A stretch of 35,920 bases of DNA from a virus (Duplodnaviria > Heunggongvirae > Uroviricota > Caudoviricetes): the IMG/VR virus record IMGVR_UViG_649989946_000004, one strand, 5' to 3'. The notes under the pieces were generated by a model, which did no database searches, was not told the DNA's origin, and was given only the letters and a program-made list of their open reading frames with translations. Every line of letters begins with the position of its first letter. Position 1 is the stretch's first letter. Position numbers and translations under genes: made by a program. Positions 4,587 through 33,402 of this stretch are shown piece after piece.

Positions 4587-4793
4587 TTAGTGATTGAGGC
4601 CGTTACCGCGTCCGTCGAGAAAAACTTCCACGAGCAAATCACGGGTATAAGTGCGCTCGATGCCGCGATGCAGATAAAGCCGTCCGCGTAAATTAGCTGA
4701 TGCAGTCCAGGTACCATCTTTGTGTTTGACCAGCATTCCTGGCATGACCGCACCGCGATTAACGGTCTGCGTTCCGTAATGTTGATGAACCAT
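4587..4793 (-). CDS. Hypothetical protein at the kil/N-equivalent position, first ORF downstream of PL (start ambiguous; frame stays open upstream to 4997)
   Basis: ATG at 4793 preceded by AGGAG SD gives a 68-aa product; the same frame stays open upstream to a TTG at 4997 and encodes an arginine-rich stretch (KRTRERRCDQ). Confidence 0.45.
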
Positions 4794-5069
4794 AAAAACT
4801 CCTGCCCGTAAGCTGGGCTGCTGAACATATAGAGACTTCTGCGCGTATTCAGGCGGTGGATGGCCGCCGGTTGTCATAACTAAGCCGCCTCGTTGAAGCG
4901 ACTGAGGTATAAAGTGTTGTGTTGATTTCAGCTGGTCACACCGACGTTCACGCGTCCGTTTCACCCCTCGCACTCCCCGAAGCCTGCTGAAATTCAAACT
5001 GCGGATCTAAGCGGTCATCGCCACGGTGAAACAGGTGGTTACCGTATCGTTGTGTCGTTGCGATGAATT

Positions 5070-5140
5070 TATTTAAAACTATAGTTGTTTTATCGTCAAC
5101 AACAAAAGTTGTTTTGTCGGTTGTTTTAAATATAACTGGT
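5070..5140. promoter_or_regulatory. Putative OL/PL operator-promoter region
   Basis: Clustered GTTGTT/AACAAC half-sites (e.g. GTTGTTTTATCGTCAACAAC) sharing the half-site of the OR palindrome at 6616-6636; positioned between the immunity operon terminator and leftward early genes. Confidence 0.4.
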
Positions 5141-5240
5141 TGTATTTAGGATGGATTTATTTTGTGACTTGCATCGCATAGCGATAACTGAAGTGAGGTG
5201 TGGTGGTTTTTTGGACGGTATGAGTTATGAGGGGGAGGAA

Positions 5241-5265
5241 AAGAAAACCCGGCGCGGTTGCCGGG
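5241..5265 (-). terminator. Rho-independent terminator ending the cI-lipoprotein transcript
   Basis: Minus-strand hairpin CCCGGCAACCGCGCCGGG followed by TTTTCTTTT. Confidence 0.55.
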
Positions 5266-5299
5266 TATGATTATCAGTCAGCCCAACCTGATTTCGAGT

Positions 5300-5653
5300 T
5301 TATTTGGGTTTCTGACATTGTGTATTTCTTAATCGTGTCATCGTTAAAAAGAATAGTAAGTTCTTTTTCGTACCGTTCGTTCCATTATGGAATAATCCAT
5401 AGAATGGAATAAAAGTGGTGCCATTAACTTTTACTTTTGCAAAGGCGTACTTCCAGATCTCGTTTCCACTGTCAGTATATGAAACAGCATCAGGAGAACC
5501 AAAGTAAGATTTAACCTCATTCTTGGTTGTTTTACCTTCCTGAAGTTTAGACTGGACACTAATTTCAGTTTCATTTTTGAGTTGCTGGTTGCCTGAAGAA
5601 GCACACCCAGCCAATACAGATGCCATCATGGCAGCGATTAGGATTTTTCTCAT
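5300..5653 (-). CDS. Prophage lipoprotein (signal peptide + lipobox LAGC; BamE/SmpA-OmlA-like motif) at the rexAB-equivalent position
   Basis: 117-aa ORF MRKILIAAMMASVLAGC...; motif G.SPD...G.EIWKY resembles BamE-like lipoproteins. C-terminus likely frame-shifted at the T5 run 5334-5338: corrected frame would read ...GTKKELTILFNDDTIKKYTMSETQINSKSGWAD and end at 5278, 12 nt before the terminator. Confidence 0.6.
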   Translation of the reverse strand: MRKILIAAMMASVLAGCASSGNQQLKNETEISVQSKLQEGKTTKNEVKSYFGSPDAVSYTDSGNEIWKYAFAKVKVNGTTFIPFYGLFHNGTNGTKKNLLFFLTMTRLRNTQCQKPK

Positions 5654-5882
5654 TTTATGTTTCCATTCATTATAATCAGAAACATCTTAACATAATGATT
5701 CGAAATAAAAACCGCTACGAGATAGGGGGACATTTTGCTGACAGTAGCAACAAATCTCAGCTAACAACGAGAATATTTACTGAAATATGCAAACAGATTT
5801 GGCGTTCTTATAGAGAATTTAGTGCAATATCTAATCCGAGTGGTATAAACCTTAACCTTCGCTCCCTTAAGTCGTAGATAAA

Positions 5883-6572
5883 TTAACCATGCTTCCTGTA
5901 CGTCTGCGGCATGCTTCCAATGACCTTACCGAATATGAACACCCGGTTCATCTCGTCTTTCTCGATCGGGTCCCACGGCGAGTAGCTCTTGTTATCAGAG
6001 ATAACCAGCAGCTTATCCTTCATCATTTGAAGACGTTTTACATGGGCAGTGTCGTCGTACAGAAACGCATAGATGCCATCACCGTCGAAAGATTTAACAG
6101 TGATATCAACGAACAGCAGGTCACCTGGTTCGATCGTCCCTGACATGCTGTCACCTCGCACGTTAATGATGCGGATATTTTCCGCCTTCCTGCCATCGAA
6201 CATGTGACGAGCATCGTCAAACGAGTACTCAACCGAGCGTAGAACTTCTACAAACTCACGGTTGATTACACCTGGCCCGGCACTGACTTCTATATCAAGA
6301 ACGTCAATTTTGAAGTATTTGGAATGGCTGACAGTTGATTGTATTGGTTGCACTGTACTGTCTGACATATTTCCAACGCCAGAAGATAACCATTCTGCGC
6401 GCACACCCAAAGCGTTCGCGATCTCCACGATTTTAGTTGTTTGGTTAGCTTTCCCTGTTTCGATTTTCTGAATAGCAGCTTGGCTAACCCCGACCAAATC
6501 CCCAAGCGCCTTTTGTGTAAGGCCTCGCGCTAATCTGGCTTCTTTAAGTCTTTCTGAGAGTGTTGTTTTCAT
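5883..6572 (-). CDS. cI: CI-type prophage repressor (HTH_XRE + S24 LexA-like peptidase domain)
   Basis: 229-aa ORF with N-terminal HTH (LTQKALGDLVGVSQAAIQKIETGK) and C-terminal autocleavage domain (GDSM ... HVKRL); ATG has no SD, consistent with a leaderless PRM-type transcript. Confidence 0.9.
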   Translation of the reverse strand: MKTTLSERLKEARLARGLTQKALGDLVGVSQAAIQKIETGKANQTTKIVEIANALGVRAEWLSSGVGNMSDSTVQPIQSTVSHSKYFKIDVLDIEVSAGPGVINREFVEVLRSVEYSFDDARHMFDGRKAENIRIINVRGDSMSGTIEPGDLLFVDITVKSFDGDGIYAFLYDDTAHVKRLQMMKDKLLVISDNKSYSPWDPIEKDEMNRVFIFGKVIGSMPQTYRKHG

Positions 6573-6676
6573 AGATCAAATGTACAACCAAGGTTTTATT
6601 TCATCAAACGAAAATGGTTGTTGACTAAAAACAACCATAGTTTTAATCTTGATTCGGATTAACCACGGAGGTTGTT
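6573..6676. promoter_or_regulatory. OR/PR/PRM immunity switch region
   Basis: 21-bp palindrome GGTTGTTGACTAAAAACAACC (6616-6636) overlapping a -35 TTGACT (6621-6626), 17-nt spacer, -10 TAATCT (6644-6649) pointing at cro; divergent cI start at 6572. Confidence 0.6.
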
Positions 6677-6976: not shown

Positions 6977-7516
6977 ATGCAACCACTTACATACCAACAG
7001 ACTAGCGGATTTATTCCGACTGCGGTGATAAATCGTTCTCAAACAAAACAAGCTCCAGGCCACGAAAAAATCCGTGATGCCGTCCGCGCCTGGTCGGCTG
7101 TAGATAATCAGGATGTCGTTGCCGCACTCATTGTGAATGAGTATCGGGAGCAGGGCGACGGCACCATCGATTTCCCTGATGATGTCAGCCGTGCACGCCA
7201 GAAGCTGTTCCGCTTCCTCGATAACAAATTCGATTCTGAAAAATACCGAAATAACGTGCGTGAACTGACCCCGGCAATTCTGGCGGTACTACCGCTGGAA
7301 TATCGCGGTTACCTGGTTGAGCAGGATAGCTTCATGACTCGGTTGGCTGAAATGGAAAAGGAACTCAGTGAGGCAAAACAGGCTGTCATTCTCAACGCAC
7401 CACGCCACCAGAAACTGAAGGAAATGAGTGAAGGTATTGTGTCGATGTTTCGTGTGGACCCGGATCTGGCTGGTCCATTAATGGCGATGGTGACCACCAT
7501 GCTGGGGGCAATATGA
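6977..7516 (+). CDS. YdaT-like protein (CII-position regulator)
   Basis: 179-aa ORF with AAGGAG SD; segment RELTPAILAVLPLEYRGYL resembles Rac prophage YdaT as recalled. Confidence 0.6.
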   Translation: MQPLTYQQTSGFIPTAVINRSQTKQAPGHEKIRDAVRAWSAVDNQDVVAALIVNEYREQGDGTIDFPDDVSRARQKLFRFLDNKFDSEKYRNNVRELTPAILAVLPLEYRGYLVEQDSFMTRLAEMEKELSEAKQAVILNAPRHQKLKEMSEGIVSMFRVDPDLAGPLMAMVTTMLGAI

Positions 7517-9777: not shown

Positions 9778-11278
9778 TTAAATTGCATCTGCAAACTCTG
9801 GGGTTTTTCGCTCAGGTATAATTGATGAGTTGCTGTTGTCACTTTTTTTATTTTCATGATTACGAATAGCCAATGACTCATTAAAGTCTTTTGCGACTGC
9901 TGTCTCAATAAATTCAATTTCTGAATCAGAGTGTTTTTTAACAGCTTCTTTGATCTCATCCAGAGTAACATAGAAAAACTCTTTTCTACGATTTACAAGA
10001 TTGACTCTCTTTTTATCGAAGACATCATGTAGTTTTTTTCTAATGATGGAGCGTCCTCCGAATAAATCATGGCATGTACATCAAAAATAAAAGGAACAGA
10101 TGCATCACCGAGCTCATTTACACGGTCTTGCGGATCAAGACGTCGTGTCATGCCTATTTTATAAACATTCTCCCCAAAAGAACCTATGTTCGAAATAATA
10201 TAAACATGACCTTGTTTGGTTTGTTGTGCCATGGATAATGCTCTTTGATGCTTTGATTCAGCCTGCGACAAACTCTGTTCTAGTTCGGCAATGCGATTTT
10301 CGAGGCGCTGCTTCATGTCACCAGTAACTTTTTCCATTTCCTTTCTTGCAGCTTCAATTGCTTTTTTATAACGGCGCTCTTCTGCCTCTGCGTCTTGCAT
10401 GGCCTTTTCTATTTCTCGTTGTGCACGCTCCTCCTCTCTCATTTGTGCCCTTATTTCTGCCTGTTCTTCTTTTTCTTTCTGTTTTTGCTCACGATATTCA
10501 TGGGTAAGCCACAATTCCTCAAGTTTTTTATTGAGGTATTTAGTGTTTATATATATATGATTTTGCTCGTTTAGTTTATTTATGGCCTCAAATGCCTTTG
10601 TGATGCGTTCTTCCATTTTAGTGATGTTTTTCCACGTGCAATTGCTAATTGCAGCATCACATTCATTATTAAATGCTCTAGTAGTTAGCCTGATATTTCT
10701 GTCTGTCATTTTTTTACCCTCTGCTCGAGAGCCTTCAACAGTCCATTGGGTTGTACAATATACTGCGCCAGAGTGGGTTTTATCCCGCAGCATTAATTTC
10801 TGTTCATCCCTGATGGATTTTATTTTGTTTTTAAATTGCTCTGAATCTTCAAAATTAAAATGAGGTTCGTAAAATCCTAGTTCGGCTAGCTCAACATCTT
10901 CTGAATAAATAGAAATTTGCCTTACTAGTTTATCATATATTTCTTTCTTCTCTTTATAAGTTCTTCTTAGCTCTTGGATTTGTTTATTGATACCATCCAT
11001 TTTTTCAATGGTGTTTGTTAGTTCATTATTGGCATTTTCTTTTACTTTTAGGGATTCTTCTTTTATTATGGAGCATTCTTGCTCTGTTTTCTCAATAAGC
11101 TTCTTACATTCTTCTTCTACATTAAAATAATCTGCAAAGCGAGATTTGTATTCTTCATTTTTTTGATTGCTATCACTTAATTCTAATTGTATTTTTTGAT
11201 GCGTTTGATTGCAGCTATATAAAGAACAAGAACAACCAATAAAAATATGATTGCAAGTAATAGAGGAGTTTGAGTCAT
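9778..11278 (-). CDS. Membrane-anchored coiled-coil protein with C-terminal T5orf172/GIY-YIG-like domain (DUF4041-like architecture); reading frame interrupted twice at homopolymer runs
   Basis: ATG at 11278 encodes a TM helix (MTQTPLLLAIIFLLVVLVLYIAAIKRIKK) that stops unless the T6 run 11192-11197 is read as 7; main 435-aa ORF (9993-11300) has a long coiled coil and GHVYIISNIGSFGENVYKIGMTRRLDPQDRVNELGDASVPFIFDVHAMI; the domain continues in the -1 frame (LHDVFDKKRVNLVNRRKEFFYVTLDEIKEAVKK...) to a stop at 9778 if the T7 run 10043-10049 is read as 8. Confidence 0.65.
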
Positions 11279-11587
11279 TCGTGCTATTCCTTACGGACAA
11301 TTTAAGACGTTTTGTATTAAATCCTGTTCAATGTGTATGCGGGTGATTGCTACCGCTTACAATCTTCATAATTATCAGTTAGATAGACTCGCTAGTAAAT
11401 AATTTCATTTTTTGCAATATTCTTATTGAATATTTCAATTTATGAAATGAACTCTTTATCCTTTCAAGGCGAAAGGTTTCTTCTTCGGAAATATTTGCTC
11501 TCGTGTGACGTATAAAGACCTTTGATTTTCAAAAATCAGTAGGGAATAATATAGTTACTGTCGGCCTGAACACCCGGTGGTGGGGTT

Positions 11588-15700: not shown

Positions 15701-16783
15701 TTAGAACTGGTAAACCATACCTACAGCAACGATATCATCGGTAGCAACGCCAGATGCTTTCGTGAAATCGCTCTTATCAATCAGGTTGATTTTGTAGTCA
15801 ACAAAAGTGGACATATTTTTGTTGAAGTAATAGGTTGCACCTACATCAATATATTCAACCAGGTCCTGATCACCCCAAGCACCCAAGTCTTTTCCTTTAG
15901 ATTGCAGGTAAGCAACGGACGGACGCAGACCGAAGTCGAACTGATATTGTGCAACTACTTCGAAGTTTTGTGCTTTGTTGGCAATATGGTTATTACCAAA
16001 AACAGTCATGTTCTGGGTTTCAGAATAGGTAGTAGCCAGATAGATGTTGTTCGCATCATATTTCAGACCAGCTGCCCATACTTCAGCATTTTGACCAGAT
16101 GCATTCAGGCTGTTGTTACCGTAGATAACCTGATTATTAGTGCGGTCAGATTTAGCATAGGTTGCACCTACGCCGAAACCTTCATACTCATAAGTAGTGG
16201 AGAAACCGAAACCATCACCATTAGCTTGAGTTACGTCAGTGCGGTCATTTTTACCCTGATACTGAGCAGCAAAGTTCAGACCATCAACCAGACCAAAGAA
16301 GTCGTTGTTACGATAAGTTGCAACACCTGTGGTGCGACCAGTCATGAATACATCTGTTTGGGTCCAGGTATCGCCACCGAATTCTGGCAGAACGTCGGTC
16401 CATGCACCAATATCGTATGCTACACCGTAGTTACGGCCATAATCGATGGAGCCGTAGTCACCGAATTTCAGGCCAGCGAAGGCAAGACGGGTTTTATCTT
16501 TGGAGGAACCTTGAGATTCAGCGCGGTTGCCTTTGAATTCATATTCCCACTGACCGAAACCAGTCAGTTGATCGTTGATTTGGGTTTCACCTTTGAAGCC
16601 AAGACGGGCATAAGTAGTATCACCATCATCTGCATCATTAGAGGAGAAGTAGTGCTTAGCATTAACTTTCCCGTACAGATCCAGCTTGTTACTGTCTTTA
16701 TTATAAATTTCAGCTGCCTGAGCAGACATCGCCATCAGTACTGATGCAGCTACAGCAGAAATTGCCACTGTTAATTTTTTCAT
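15701..16783 (-). CDS. nmpC: General porin, OmpC/OmpF family (NmpC-like), apparently intact
   Basis: Signal peptide [23 protein letters not shown] then AEIYNKD... and C-terminal ...VGMVYQF typical of enterobacterial porins; located between Q and the lysis cassette as in DLP12. Confidence 0.9.
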
Positions 16784-17210
16784 CGTGAGCCCTTTTTTTG
16801 AACTATTATTAAAAAATGATGTCACTGCGCGATAAATATTCATCTAATCAATGTGATTATTTCAAGATGTAAGTTTTGGTTTCTCGTTTGATTTGTGAAG
16901 TAGATCTCTATTTTTATCTGAACTTTTTTCTATCGAATCCTATTCATGGCTCTTGGCTGAATAAAAATAAATCTATTAGCCAATTTATATTAACGGCTGT
17001 CATTTATAAGTGCTCTATAATTTGAAGGTTCAATTTAAACCGGCTAAAAATAACGCTGGAAATTATTTGTTGGTTATTTGTTGATATTTGCTTATGTATT
17101 TGTAGTGGTGTTTTCAATACTCGGTAGCATTCTCGCAAATATCATTTAGTGGTTTACGTACGTAAAAAATTGGTTATGCTGTTAAGAGTGGTTACTTCGT
17201 CACACAGCTT

Positions 17211-30029: not shown

Positions 30030-30367
30030 CGCGGGAAATGCAGTTTGTCATGCGGCTTGCCCGGGAGTTCCGGCGGGCAGACTGGCGGCGGATGCTGTCG
30101 GAAATGTCGGCCACTGAGCTTGGTGAGTGGGGCGATTATTTCCGGATGCAGAGCTTCAGTGATGTGTGGATGGATGCGCAGTTTGCCTCGCTGAAGGCAT
30201 TGATCGTGAGAATGGTGTCCGGTAGCAGTGATGCTGCGGTGGCTGATTTCAGCCTTTTACCGGAAGAGAACGGGATACCGGAGCGAACGGACGAAGAACT
30301 GATGCATCTTGGGGAAGGTATTTCCGGAGGTGTGCGTTATGGACCAGATAGCCAACCTGGTCATTGA
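29640..30367 (+). CDS. Tail assembly chaperone GT (programmed -1 frameshift product)
   Basis: The -1 frame is open from 30005 and continues 112 codons past the G stop (30027-30029) to 30367; the shift window 30005-30029 contains GGAAAAG; conserved G/GT arrangement of lambda-like tails. Confidence 0.7.
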
Positions 30368-33300
30368 TTTGGGGATTGATGCGGCAGAGTTTAAAAATGA
30401 AATTCCCCGTATCAAAAACCTTCTGAATGGTGCAGCCAGCGATGCAGAACGGTCTTCTGCCCGTATGCAGCGTTTTATGGAGCGTCAGACTCAGGCCGCC
30501 CGGCAGACAATGCAGGCGGCTTCTTCGGCTGCAACAGCCGCATCCGTCCATGCGCAGACGGTGGAGAAGAGCGCACAGGCTCATGAACGCATGGCCCGCG
30601 AGGTGGAGCAAACCCGCCAGCGTATGGAGGCACTGAGCCAGAAAATGCGCGAGGAACAGGCGCAGGCCATGGCTCTGGCGGAGACTCAGGATAAAGCGGC
30701 TGCCGCGTTTTATCGTCAGATTGACAGTGTGAAACAGGCCAGTGCGGGGCTGCAGGAATTACAGCGTATTCAGCAGCAGATCCGACAGGCCAGAAACAGT
30801 GGCGGGATTGGTCAGCAGGATTATCTGGCGCTGATTTCTGAGGTTACGGCGAAAACCGGTGTTCTTACGCAGGCTGAGGCAGAGGCTACCCGACAGAAAG
30901 TGGCGTTTATCCGTCAGCTTAAAGAGCAGGCAACCCGCCAGAATCTTTCTTCTTCTGAGTTGCTTCGTGCTAAGGCTGCCCAGCTGGGGGTAAGCAGTGC
31001 TGCAGAAGTGTATATCCGCAAAATGGAGCAGGCAGGAAAAGCCACGCATTCGCTGGGTCTGAAAAGTGCAGCGGCCCGCCAGGAGATAGGCGTTCTGATA
31101 GGTGAACTGGCTCGCGGCAATTTAGGTGCGCTGAGGGGATCCGGGATAACGCTGGCTAACCGTGCCGGATGGATAGACACACTGATGTCACCGAAAGGCA
31201 TGATGCTGGGCGGGGTTATTGGCGGTATTGCCGCGGCCGTCTATGGTCTGGGTAAAGCCTGGTATGATGGTCAGAAGGAGGGGGAAGAATTTAACCGCCA
31301 GTTGTCGCTGACGGGGCATTATGCCGGAGTCACTGCCGGGCAGCTGTGGACGCTCAGTCGTGCTATTTCCGGGAATGGTATTACGCAACATGCTGCAGCC
31401 GGTGCGCTGGCTCAGGTGGTGGGGAGTGGTGCATTTCGTGGAAACGATATCGGTATGGTGGCGAGAGCTGCCGCACAGATGGAGCGATCGGTTGGCCAGT
31501 CGGTCAGCGATACCATAAATCAGTTTAAGCGGCTGAAGGATGATCCTGTAAATGCCGCGAAGGCTCTGGACAATGAGCTGCATTTTCTTACTGCCACTCA
31601 GCTTGAGCAGATACGCGTCCTTGGGGAACAGGGGCGGTCCAGTGATGCGGCACGGATAGCCATGTCTGCACTGGCAGAGGAAACCGGTCGGCGTACTGCG
31701 GATATTGATAATAACCTCAATGCGCTGGGCAGTACGCTGAAGTATCTGTCTGATTTATGGAGTCGTTTCTGGGATGCGGCCATGAATATTGGTCGTGAAG
31801 ACTCGCTGGATGAACAGATTTCCGCTTTACAGGAGAAAGTGTCGCGGGCGAAAAGACTCCCCTGGACGGCATCATCTTCTCAGGTTGAGTACGATCAGCA
31901 GCGTCTTAACGAGCTTCAGGAGAAAAAACGCCAGAAGGATTTGCAGGATGCAAAAGAGCAGGCAGAGCGGAATTATCAGGAGCAACAGAAACGCCGTAAT
32001 GCTGAAAATGCTGCACTGAACCGGATGAATGAAACGGAAGCAGCACGACATCAGCGTGAAATTGCGCGTATTAATGCCATGCAGTACGCCGATCAGGCTG
32101 TCAGGGATGCGGCGATACAACGTGAAAATGAACGTTACGAGAAAGCCCTGGCATCCGGTAAGAAAAAACACGCGAACCCCGTAATGATGAGGCCACCCGG
32201 TTATTGCTGCAGTACAGTCAGCAACAGGCACAGGTGGAAGGACAGATTGCTGCTGCCAGACAGTCAGCAGGCATTGCCACGGAAAGGATGACAGAAGCGC
32301 ATAAACAGCTTCTGGCTCTGCAGCAGCGCATCAGCGACCTGGACGGGAAAAAACTGACGGCAGATGAAAAGAGTGTGCTGGCCCGTAAAGATGAACTGAT
32401 TCAGGCACTGACGCTGCTGGATGTAAAACAGCAGGAGCTTCAGAAACAGACGGCACTCAACGAGCTGAAGAAAAAACAATTCAGCTGACCAGTCAACTGG
32501 CTGAAGAAGAGCGCGCTCAGCGTCAGCAACATGACCTGGATATCGCCACGGTGGGTATGGGTGATCAGCAGCGGCAGCGATATCAGGTACAACTGAGTCT
32601 TCGCCAGAAATACCAGCAACAGCTGGAGCAGTTGAGGCGGGATAGTGAGCAGAAAGGAACATATAACACGGATGACTACAGAAAGGCCGAGCAGGCGCTG
32701 ACGGAGAGCCTGAACCGACAACTGAATGAGAATCGCCGTTACTGGCAACAGCTTGAAGTTGTGCAGGGTAACTGGAAAAACGGAGTCCTGCGTGCATTTC
32801 AGGATTTTACCGTGGATGCAGATAATACGGCAGGAACAGCAGAACAGGTGTTCTCGTCAGCCTTCAGCAACATGGGAAATGGCCTGGCAACTTTTGTCAC
32901 TACCGGCAAACTCAATTTCAAATCCTTCACCTCTTCTGTGCTGTCAGATATGGCGAAAATCCTGGCGCAGGCAACCATGATGAAATCGATAAAAGGGATT
33001 GGCAGTGTACTGGGATTTGATCTCAGCAGCCTTTCCCTGAATGCCAATGGGGGGATTTATCAGTCTGCTGATTTGAGTCGTTACAGTGGCACGGTGGTTA
33101 ACCGTCCGACGTTTTTTGCTTTTGCAAAAGGCGCGGGTGTGATGGGGGAAGCGGGACCTGAAGCCATTCTGCCACTGCGTCGTGGTGCTGACGGTAAGCT
33201 GGGGGTTGTGGCGGATATTGGTGGTTCAGGTATGGCGATGTTTGCCCCGCAGTACAACATCGAGATCAATAACGATGGCACGAACGGGCAGATAGGTCCG

Positions 33301-33402
33301 GCTGCCCTGAAGGTGGTTTATGACCTCGGGAAAAAAGCGGCAGCGGACTTTATGCAACAGCAGGCCCGTGATGGTGGTCGGTTAAGTGGAGCATATCGGT
33401 AA
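30339..33402 (+). CDS. H: Tail tape measure protein H (frame broken twice at A6 runs in this assembly)
   Basis: Three successive ORFs (30309-32291, 32204-32488, 32551-33402) are rejoined by adding one A to each of the A6 runs at 32163-32168 and 32471-32476; coiled-coil-rich; C-terminus ...NIEINNDGTNGQIGPAALKVVYD...DGGRLSG matches lambda H. Confidence 0.85.

Follow-up and report, generated by a model that had tools for sequence, protein, structure and literature searches.

An intact BamE-fold lipoprotein gene in the cargo slot behind the cI repressor of an Escherichia coli lambdoid prophage

The virus record IMGVR_UViG_649989946_000004 (35,920 nucleotides; hereafter the window, meaning this whole stretch of DNA) is part of an Escherichia coli lambdoid (pro)phage and carries, directly behind its cI repressor gene, a gene for a small lipoprotein. 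We conclude that this is an intact accessory (moron) gene, the apparent frameshift being, by comparison with its relatives, a sequencing or assembly error, and that the interval in which it lies, from the cI stop codon to the immunity terminator, is on the alignment evidence a swappable hotspot for defence cargo with exact breakpoints. The mature product, of about 12 kDa, is a lipoprotein of the PHROG 3135 family with a BamE/BLIP-type fold, yet it is not a BAM subunit. Our best guess at its role, put forward tentatively and by analogy, is phage exclusion through the binding of an envelope partner, in the manner of Llp and Cor and without homology to them.

An accessory gene in the slot between cI and the immunity terminator

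The boundaries of the slot emerged from comparison with two prophages of the same cI type, with which the homology of the window breaks exactly at the cI stop codon (5883) and resumes at 5253-5266, inside the terminator. In strain EC38, which has the identical repressor WP_000858975.1, the interval (locus L100, 4353-5656) is filled by RexA (PADLOC E = 3.5e-115) and RexB (E = 2.1e-55), and in strain ZY22049 by the candidate defence system PDC-M66A/B (L099, 4396-5969), the repressors of these prophages with alternative cargo being the same or a 96%-identical allele. The interval of Salmonella phage S107 holds BstA (E = 9.4e-100; L090, 2989-3756) beside a homologue of the lipoprotein gene. The region between cI and N has been described as a moron hotspot, and bstA as co-transcribed with cI (PMC7067206). 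Because the same cI is followed elsewhere by RexA and RexB, and because the breakpoints fall at the cI stop and at the terminator, the term "rexAB-equivalent slot" used in the initial annotation proves literally right. The cI allele was found at 95% identity or more in about 1520 E. coli genomes. Of 5426 complete E. coli genomes, 69 carry the lipoprotein cassette, in each case within this prophage context.

The gene order of the window fits this picture. On the minus strand, cI is followed by a 229-nt AT-rich spacer, the lipoprotein open reading frame (ORF; start at 5653), the terminator, an operator cluster and then kil, gam, bet and exo, while the rightward genes, from 6677 on, are cro, a YdaT-domain gene, O and P. 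The resulting arrangement, oL / terminator / lipoprotein ORF / cI / oR, corresponds to pL-rexB-rexA-cI-pR of lambda, and since inverted copies of the oL/oR operators flank the ORF on both sides (one inverted pair is 19 nt long and 95% complementary), we place it inside the immunity region. The proposals that the ORF follows cI immediately and on the same strand, and that it ends at a terminator, were borne out. This terminator is common to prophages with RexAB or PDC-M66 in the slot, which argues that it belongs to the immunity operon and not to the cargo. The gene further has the marks of a moron, namely variable presence at a fixed site, deviant base composition (38% GC in the coding sequence (CDS) and 34% in the spacer, against 49% in the window) and a conserved extended -10-like element as a candidate promoter. 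The features concerned are collected in Table 1.

As assembled, the gene is a 117-aa ORF (5300-5653) whose C-terminus is out of frame with every intact homologue. The cause lies in a homopolymer run that counts five T in the window and six in 68 of the 69 complete cassette-bearing E. coli genomes as well as in phage PhiR26_1, where the product has 126 aa. With one base restored the protein ends in ...GTKKELTILFNDDTIKKYTMSETQINSKSGWAD, and 7 nt separate its stop codon from the terminator stem. A frameshift had been suspected from the start, rightly so, but its site is the run at 5364-5368 and neither 5330-5340, where it was sought, nor the T5 run of the coding strand at 5346-5350, and the distance from corrected stop to hairpin had been given as 12 nt, which does not hold. 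Relative to relatives of 99.8-99.9% identity, all clean indels in the window (9/9) are single-base homopolymer deletions (at 2069, 5364-5368, 10032, 11191, 23408, 32162, 32470, 33847 and 34732), and they disrupt the genes for the lipoprotein, PD-lambda-1/DUF4041, terminase, tape measure, L and K, several of which are essential. The only other genome with T5 is that of ET201, in whose same prophage ybcN, ren, O, ydaT and bet are all annotated as frameshifted. This pattern indicates systematic homopolymer under-calling in the assembly and not biology, and because nine of nine clean indels are -1 homopolymer deletions, the frameshift is an assembly artefact and the true product is 126 aa long.

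We give very little credence to a true pseudogene, or to phase variation of the gene through slippage in the A6 tract. The coding strand of the window does read A5 and ET201 does share this allele, but the deletions strike terminase, tape-measure, L and K genes alike, the ET201 prophage has numerous annotated frameshifts of its own, and 68 of the 69 E. coli genomes have A6. A programmed or phase-variable frameshift was ruled out on the grounds that every clean indel of the window is a -1 homopolymer deletion and that ET201 is full of annotated frameshifts. The ORF is intact in 17 of the 17 homologues examined (from Escherichia, Citrobacter, Enterobacter, Salmonella phage S107 and other genera), in which it measures 381 nt and ends in GWAD and a stop codon, with dN of 0.10-0.23, saturated dS and dN/dS ≤ 0.06. 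For annotation, the frameshift in the window should be treated as a sequencing error and not be trusted.

Table 1. Positions in the window of the lipoprotein gene and of the features around it
Feature	Position	Strand	Remarks
oL/pL-like operator cluster	5073-5149		inverted copies of the oR operators within
Intrinsic terminator	5247-5266	-	7-bp stem with 6 G-C pairs, then T-rich tail
Swappable cargo interval, cI stop to terminator	5267-5882	-	AT-rich
Lipoprotein CDS, 126 aa with one base restored	5274-5653	-	ATG 5653-5651, Cys17 lipobox, TGA 5276-5274
Homopolymer run, T5 on the plus strand (A5 on the coding strand)	5364-5368		6 in relatives; site of the -1 frameshift
Candidate extended -10 promoter element TGtTAAGAT	5684-5692	-	invariant in the upstream alignment
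cI repressor (HTH + S24 peptidase; LexA/S24-type)	5883-6572	-	identical to WP_000858975.1; stop at 5883
oR operator cluster	6584-6646		between cI and cro

Several neighbouring genes deserve mention. An N-like antiterminator ORF is not evident at 4587-5130, between the pL/oL region and kil, and a YdaT-domain protein (6977-7516) sits at the cII position, which makes the early region Rac-like. Downstream of ren lies a DUF4041 gene (9993-11300, minus strand) that is labelled PD-lambda-1 in phage PhiR26_1, where its intact length is 1503 nt; in the window it is disrupted by two homopolymer errors. The tape-measure gene is likewise split by deletions, into 30309-32291 and 32551-33402. Between Q and the lysis genes the prophage carries a porin gene of the OmpD/NmpC/Lc type (15701-16843, minus strand), a second envelope-altering moron.

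Signal sequence, fold and spread of the lipoprotein family

The N-terminus, MRK-ILIAAMMASV-LAGC, consists of an n-region (MRK), a hydrophobic core and the lipobox L14-A-G-C17, with Ala at position +2. Cys17 is invariant in an alignment of 70 family members, 65 of which match the lipobox pattern [LVI][ASTVI][GAS]C, and in none of these 65 is the +2 residue Asp (A, S, V, G, M, T, I and E occur). An Asp at +2 acts as the inner-membrane retention signal, and lipoproteins with other residues there are sorted to the outer membrane in a Lol-dependent manner. The prediction of a signal-peptide lipoprotein with the lipobox LAGC is upheld by Cys17, by its invariance and by the Ala that follows it.

The protein matches phrog_3135, a family of unknown function, over residues 1-124 (E = 2.9e-48). 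Newer RefSeq records name the identical protein WP_001226568.1 a "SEN1984 family lipoprotein" and others an "outer membrane protein assembly factor BamE", a label that claims too much. Its score against Pfam BamE (PF04355) is 21.8 bits, under the gathering score of 23.2, with 59 of the 70 family members matching this model at E ≤ 0.01; Lambda_Bor was not matched in the Pfam search. The NCBIfam release used, which is without a SEN1984 model, gave matches only at the level of the signal peptide (for example Ag473 and TrsH), and the BamE model was not among them.

In the AF2 model (mean pLDDT 78.6), two helices precede a beta sheet, in keeping with the alpha-alpha-beta-beta-beta fold of the BamE type, while the conserved, family-specific aromatic loop TFIPFYGLFHNG is modelled with low confidence. 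With this fold and the 59 members that match Pfam BamE, the BamE/OmlA-like call of the initial annotation stands. Alignment by hhalign with E. coli BamE, whose sequence as used agrees with a partial PDB alignment, gave a probability of 89%; it placed an insertion of about 14 residues in a beta-hairpin, with an extra C-terminal strand also present. Where BamE has its N-terminal segment RVVYRPDINQGNYL, the present protein has a linker that is shorter, dissimilar and interrupted by a 7-residue gap. BamE binds POTRA5 of BamA as well as BamD, and this N-terminal segment contacts BamA and BamD. The G-x-P and W-x-Y core motifs are common to both proteins. BLIP, BtiO and OsmE also share the fold, at 11-18% identity to the BLIP/BtiO-type proteins, and it is commonly a general protein-binding or inhibitor module. 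A search of PDB chains with the family profile gave marginal BamE matches (E about 0.07-0.2), and the sole matches in a BFVD fold search were Pseudomonas phage SmpA/OmlA proteins of unknown function.

The family is large, strongly constrained and repeatedly captured by temperate phages of Enterobacterales, Klebsiella, Alteromonas and Pseudomonas. An exhaustive HMMER search yielded 1316 clusters at 50% identity (E ≤ 1e-3), and a genome scan with nine close sequences as query recovered 79 loci, which extend beyond Enterobacterales to Moraxella, Neisseria, Pseudovibrio, Zetaproteobacteria, Nitrosomonadales, Paraburkholderia and Desulfovibrio. The homologues of Citrobacter and Enterobacter prophages and that of Salmonella phage S107 always lie on the same strand as the repressor gene and downstream of it, ahead of the leftward early genes, and an extra cargo gene sometimes intervenes between the two. 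A second setting is the tail module, found in prophages of Phytobacter, Raoultella, Buttiauxella, Biostraticola, Pantoea and Pseudidiomarina and in Klebsiella phage RAH1, where the homologue mostly adjoins the tape-measure gene directly; in Pseudidiomarina its neighbours are a gene for a tail chaperone and a probable but unconfirmed tape-measure gene. A more distant homologue, that of Pseudomonas phage Lodos, adjoins the integrase gene. These three positions, downstream of cI, in the tail module and by the integrase gene, are classic moron sites. The gene is an ordinary moron that will not surprise a phage biologist, and a moderately interesting candidate for experiment.

Some loci have features of their own. 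The Citrobacter, Enterobacter and S107 loci have in common an ORF, conserved and 68-75 aa long, that lies just downstream of the lipoprotein gene but on the other strand (L003 6413-6619, L007 6510-6722 and L090 4423-4650, respectively, all on the minus strand) and is absent from the window. Certain distant family members are plainly chromosomal. In about 10 Moraxella genomes the homologue occupies an odd, conserved chromosomal location within the operon of the F1Fo ATP synthase, with atpG and atpD on either side (L057 5001-5378 was annotated with Pfam, and L062-L065, L072, L073, L077 and L087 were assigned by the same ORF geometry). In Paraburkholderia (L050 5001-5348), it lies between a TpsA (filamentous-haemagglutinin) gene and a gene for a TpsB of the ShlB/FhaC type (POTRA, Omp85 family), a possible sign that the family acts together with proteins of the Omp85 type.

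Expression signals and candidate functions

The element TGtTAAGAT is part of a block, about 55 nt long and upstream of the ATG, that is conserved together with the gene across genera. In Citrobacter it is paired with a -35 hexamer, TTGACC, and in Enterobacter and S107 an intrinsic terminator stands directly upstream of the block; together, these terminators, the Citrobacter -35 and the invariant -10-like element imply an independent promoter. A consensus sigma-70 scan of the coding strand between cI and the ATG found no promoter in the window, and the idea that the gene has a strong sigma-70 promoter of its own was dropped, the extended -10-like element having emerged only through comparative alignment. 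Since the -35 is lost and a convincing terminator between cI and the lipoprotein gene was not found in the window, read-through from the cI promoter is likely too. In lysogens the lipoprotein would then have two sources of expression, its own conserved extended -10 promoter and read-through from the cI promoter, and transcription would end at the shared immunity terminator. A different gene near cI is highly expressed in lysogens of the related prophage Perceval (PMC9928086). Folding of the spacer between cI and the lipoprotein gene gave a z-score of -0.57, which is not significant for a structured RNA. An 8-bp palindrome, ATTATAAT (5669-5676, minus strand), lies downstream of the putative -10 element and ahead of the Shine-Dalgarno sequence and reads GATTGCAATC in most homologues; it may be a regulator-binding site.

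The function we favour follows the route of the predicted protein. With Ala at +2, it would reach the inner leaflet of the outer membrane through the Lol pathway, and from there it would bind a host envelope protein on the periplasmic side, and the lysogen would thereby be shielded from superinfecting phages through a block of receptor function or DNA entry. We favour such an anti-phage role because of the company the gene keeps in its slot, because of the precedents set by Llp, Cor and the mEpimmI Lpp, and because the fold is commonly a protein-binding or inhibitor module. Exclusion of OmpA- or LamB-dependent phages by prophage lipoproteins has been shown experimentally (PMC11893012). Given this company in the slot, the lipoprotein is a well-motivated and cheap candidate when new factors for exclusion or lysogenic conversion are sought.

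A number of observations weigh against this exclusion reading. The -35 of the candidate promoter is weak or lost in the window. In the literature we found no paper or experiment on the function of any family member; PADLOC, which has no model for the family, left the lipoprotein unmatched; and Pfam and PHROG searches found no homology to Cor, Llp or Bor, the match to PHROG 1119 (Cor) covering the signal peptide only (E = 0.066). The gene is linked to the immunity module and not to the receptor-binding module, and the head modules found in combination with it are of two different kinds. Family members moreover reside by tape-measure genes, by an integrase gene, in the non-phage island ROD21 or on the chromosome (in the Moraxella atp operon and between TpsA and TpsB), and the ancestral role of the family is therefore not phage exclusion. 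The linkage to the immunity module, the two head modules and the non-phage settings together disfavour a simple blocker matched to one receptor.

The likeness to BamE opens another route, on which the lipoprotein would act as a BAM-directed mimic or accessory, docking on BamA/BamD in place of BamE or beside it and altering outer-membrane protein assembly or Rcs signalling as a form of lysogenic conversion, possibly also helping to assemble the prophage's own porin. The adjacency of the Paraburkholderia homologue to an Omp85-family TpsB gene speaks for such a role. We consider it somewhat unlikely, as the protein scores under the Pfam BamE threshold and lacks an NCBIfam BamE match, the BamE N-terminal segment is not conserved in the hhalign alignment, the loop insertion of about 14 residues sets it apart, and the fold is a general protein-binding module found also in BLIP, BtiO and OsmE. 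A bolder version, and a long shot in our judgement, has the phage-made BamE mimic docking from the periplasm on BAM or another Omp85/POTRA protein and locking or remodelling it, and so guarding the lysogen from phages dependent on BamA or on newly assembled receptors, from contact-dependent inhibition (CDI) toxins and from bacteriocins. If true, this would amount to a new class of superinfection exclusion that targets outer-membrane biogenesis and not one receptor.

A host-fitness or virulence moron of the Bor type, acting in stress, serum or colonisation fitness without a role in phage exclusion, also has to be weighed. The family member SEN1984 resides in the S. Enteritidis pathogenicity island ROD21 (PMC10655114, PMC3198454), lambda lysogens express bor and lom (PMC7067206), and OsmE has the same fold; but the other cargos of the slot act against phages or are candidates for doing so (RexAB and PDC-M66 replacing the gene, BstA beside its homologue), and a phenotype of SEN1984 itself was not found reported, so that we regard this explanation as unlikely. 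It is quite improbable, finally, that the lipoprotein is a BLIP/BtiO-like periplasmic inhibitor or immunity protein that neutralises enzymes or toxins entering from outside (a tail lysin of a phage, for example, or a colicin or type VI secretion system effector): several homologues do adjoin tape-measure genes, but no partner toxin gene is adjacent in the window and identity to BLIP/BtiO-type proteins is as low as given above. Phage exclusion by binding of an envelope partner remains our preferred, if tentative, reading.

Comparison with known systems

Set against known systems, the protein combines features of several. With BamE (SmpA/OmlA) it shares the format of a small outer-membrane-type lipoprotein and the G-x-P and W-x-Y core motifs. 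It differs in being prophage-encoded and restricted to 69 of 5426 E. coli genomes, where BamE is core chromosomal, and in its shorter, unrelated N-terminal linker, its aromatic loop insertion of about 14 residues, its extra C-terminal strand and its sub-threshold Pfam score. SEN1984 of ROD21 is, by RefSeq naming, a member of the same family (PHROG 3135) and of the same length class, and was likewise predicted to be BamE-like, by Phyre2 (PMC10655114); it lies in an excisable island and not in a prophage immunity region, and is equally uncharacterised.

Cor (phi80, N15, HK022 and mEp phages), Llp (T5) and the mEpimmI Lpp are, like this protein, small phage-encoded outer-membrane-type lipoproteins, and they act by blocking FhuA, OmpA or LamB (PMC11893012). 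They are not homologous to it, and they are encoded within or close to the tail or receptor-binding module and not, as here, next to cI. Lambda Bor is a prophage lipoprotein expressed in lysogens, as this one would be, but the present protein has no match to Pfam Lambda_Bor, and relatives of this phage carry a separate bor near the lysis genes. The closest positional counterpart is rexA-rexB of lambda. The lipoprotein has no sequence or structural relation to their products, a single, predictedly exported lipoprotein standing against a cytoplasmic sensor and an inner-membrane protein, yet its gene occupies the identical interval, from the cI stop to the immunity terminator and on the same strand, and in EC38 it is true RexA and RexB that take its place.
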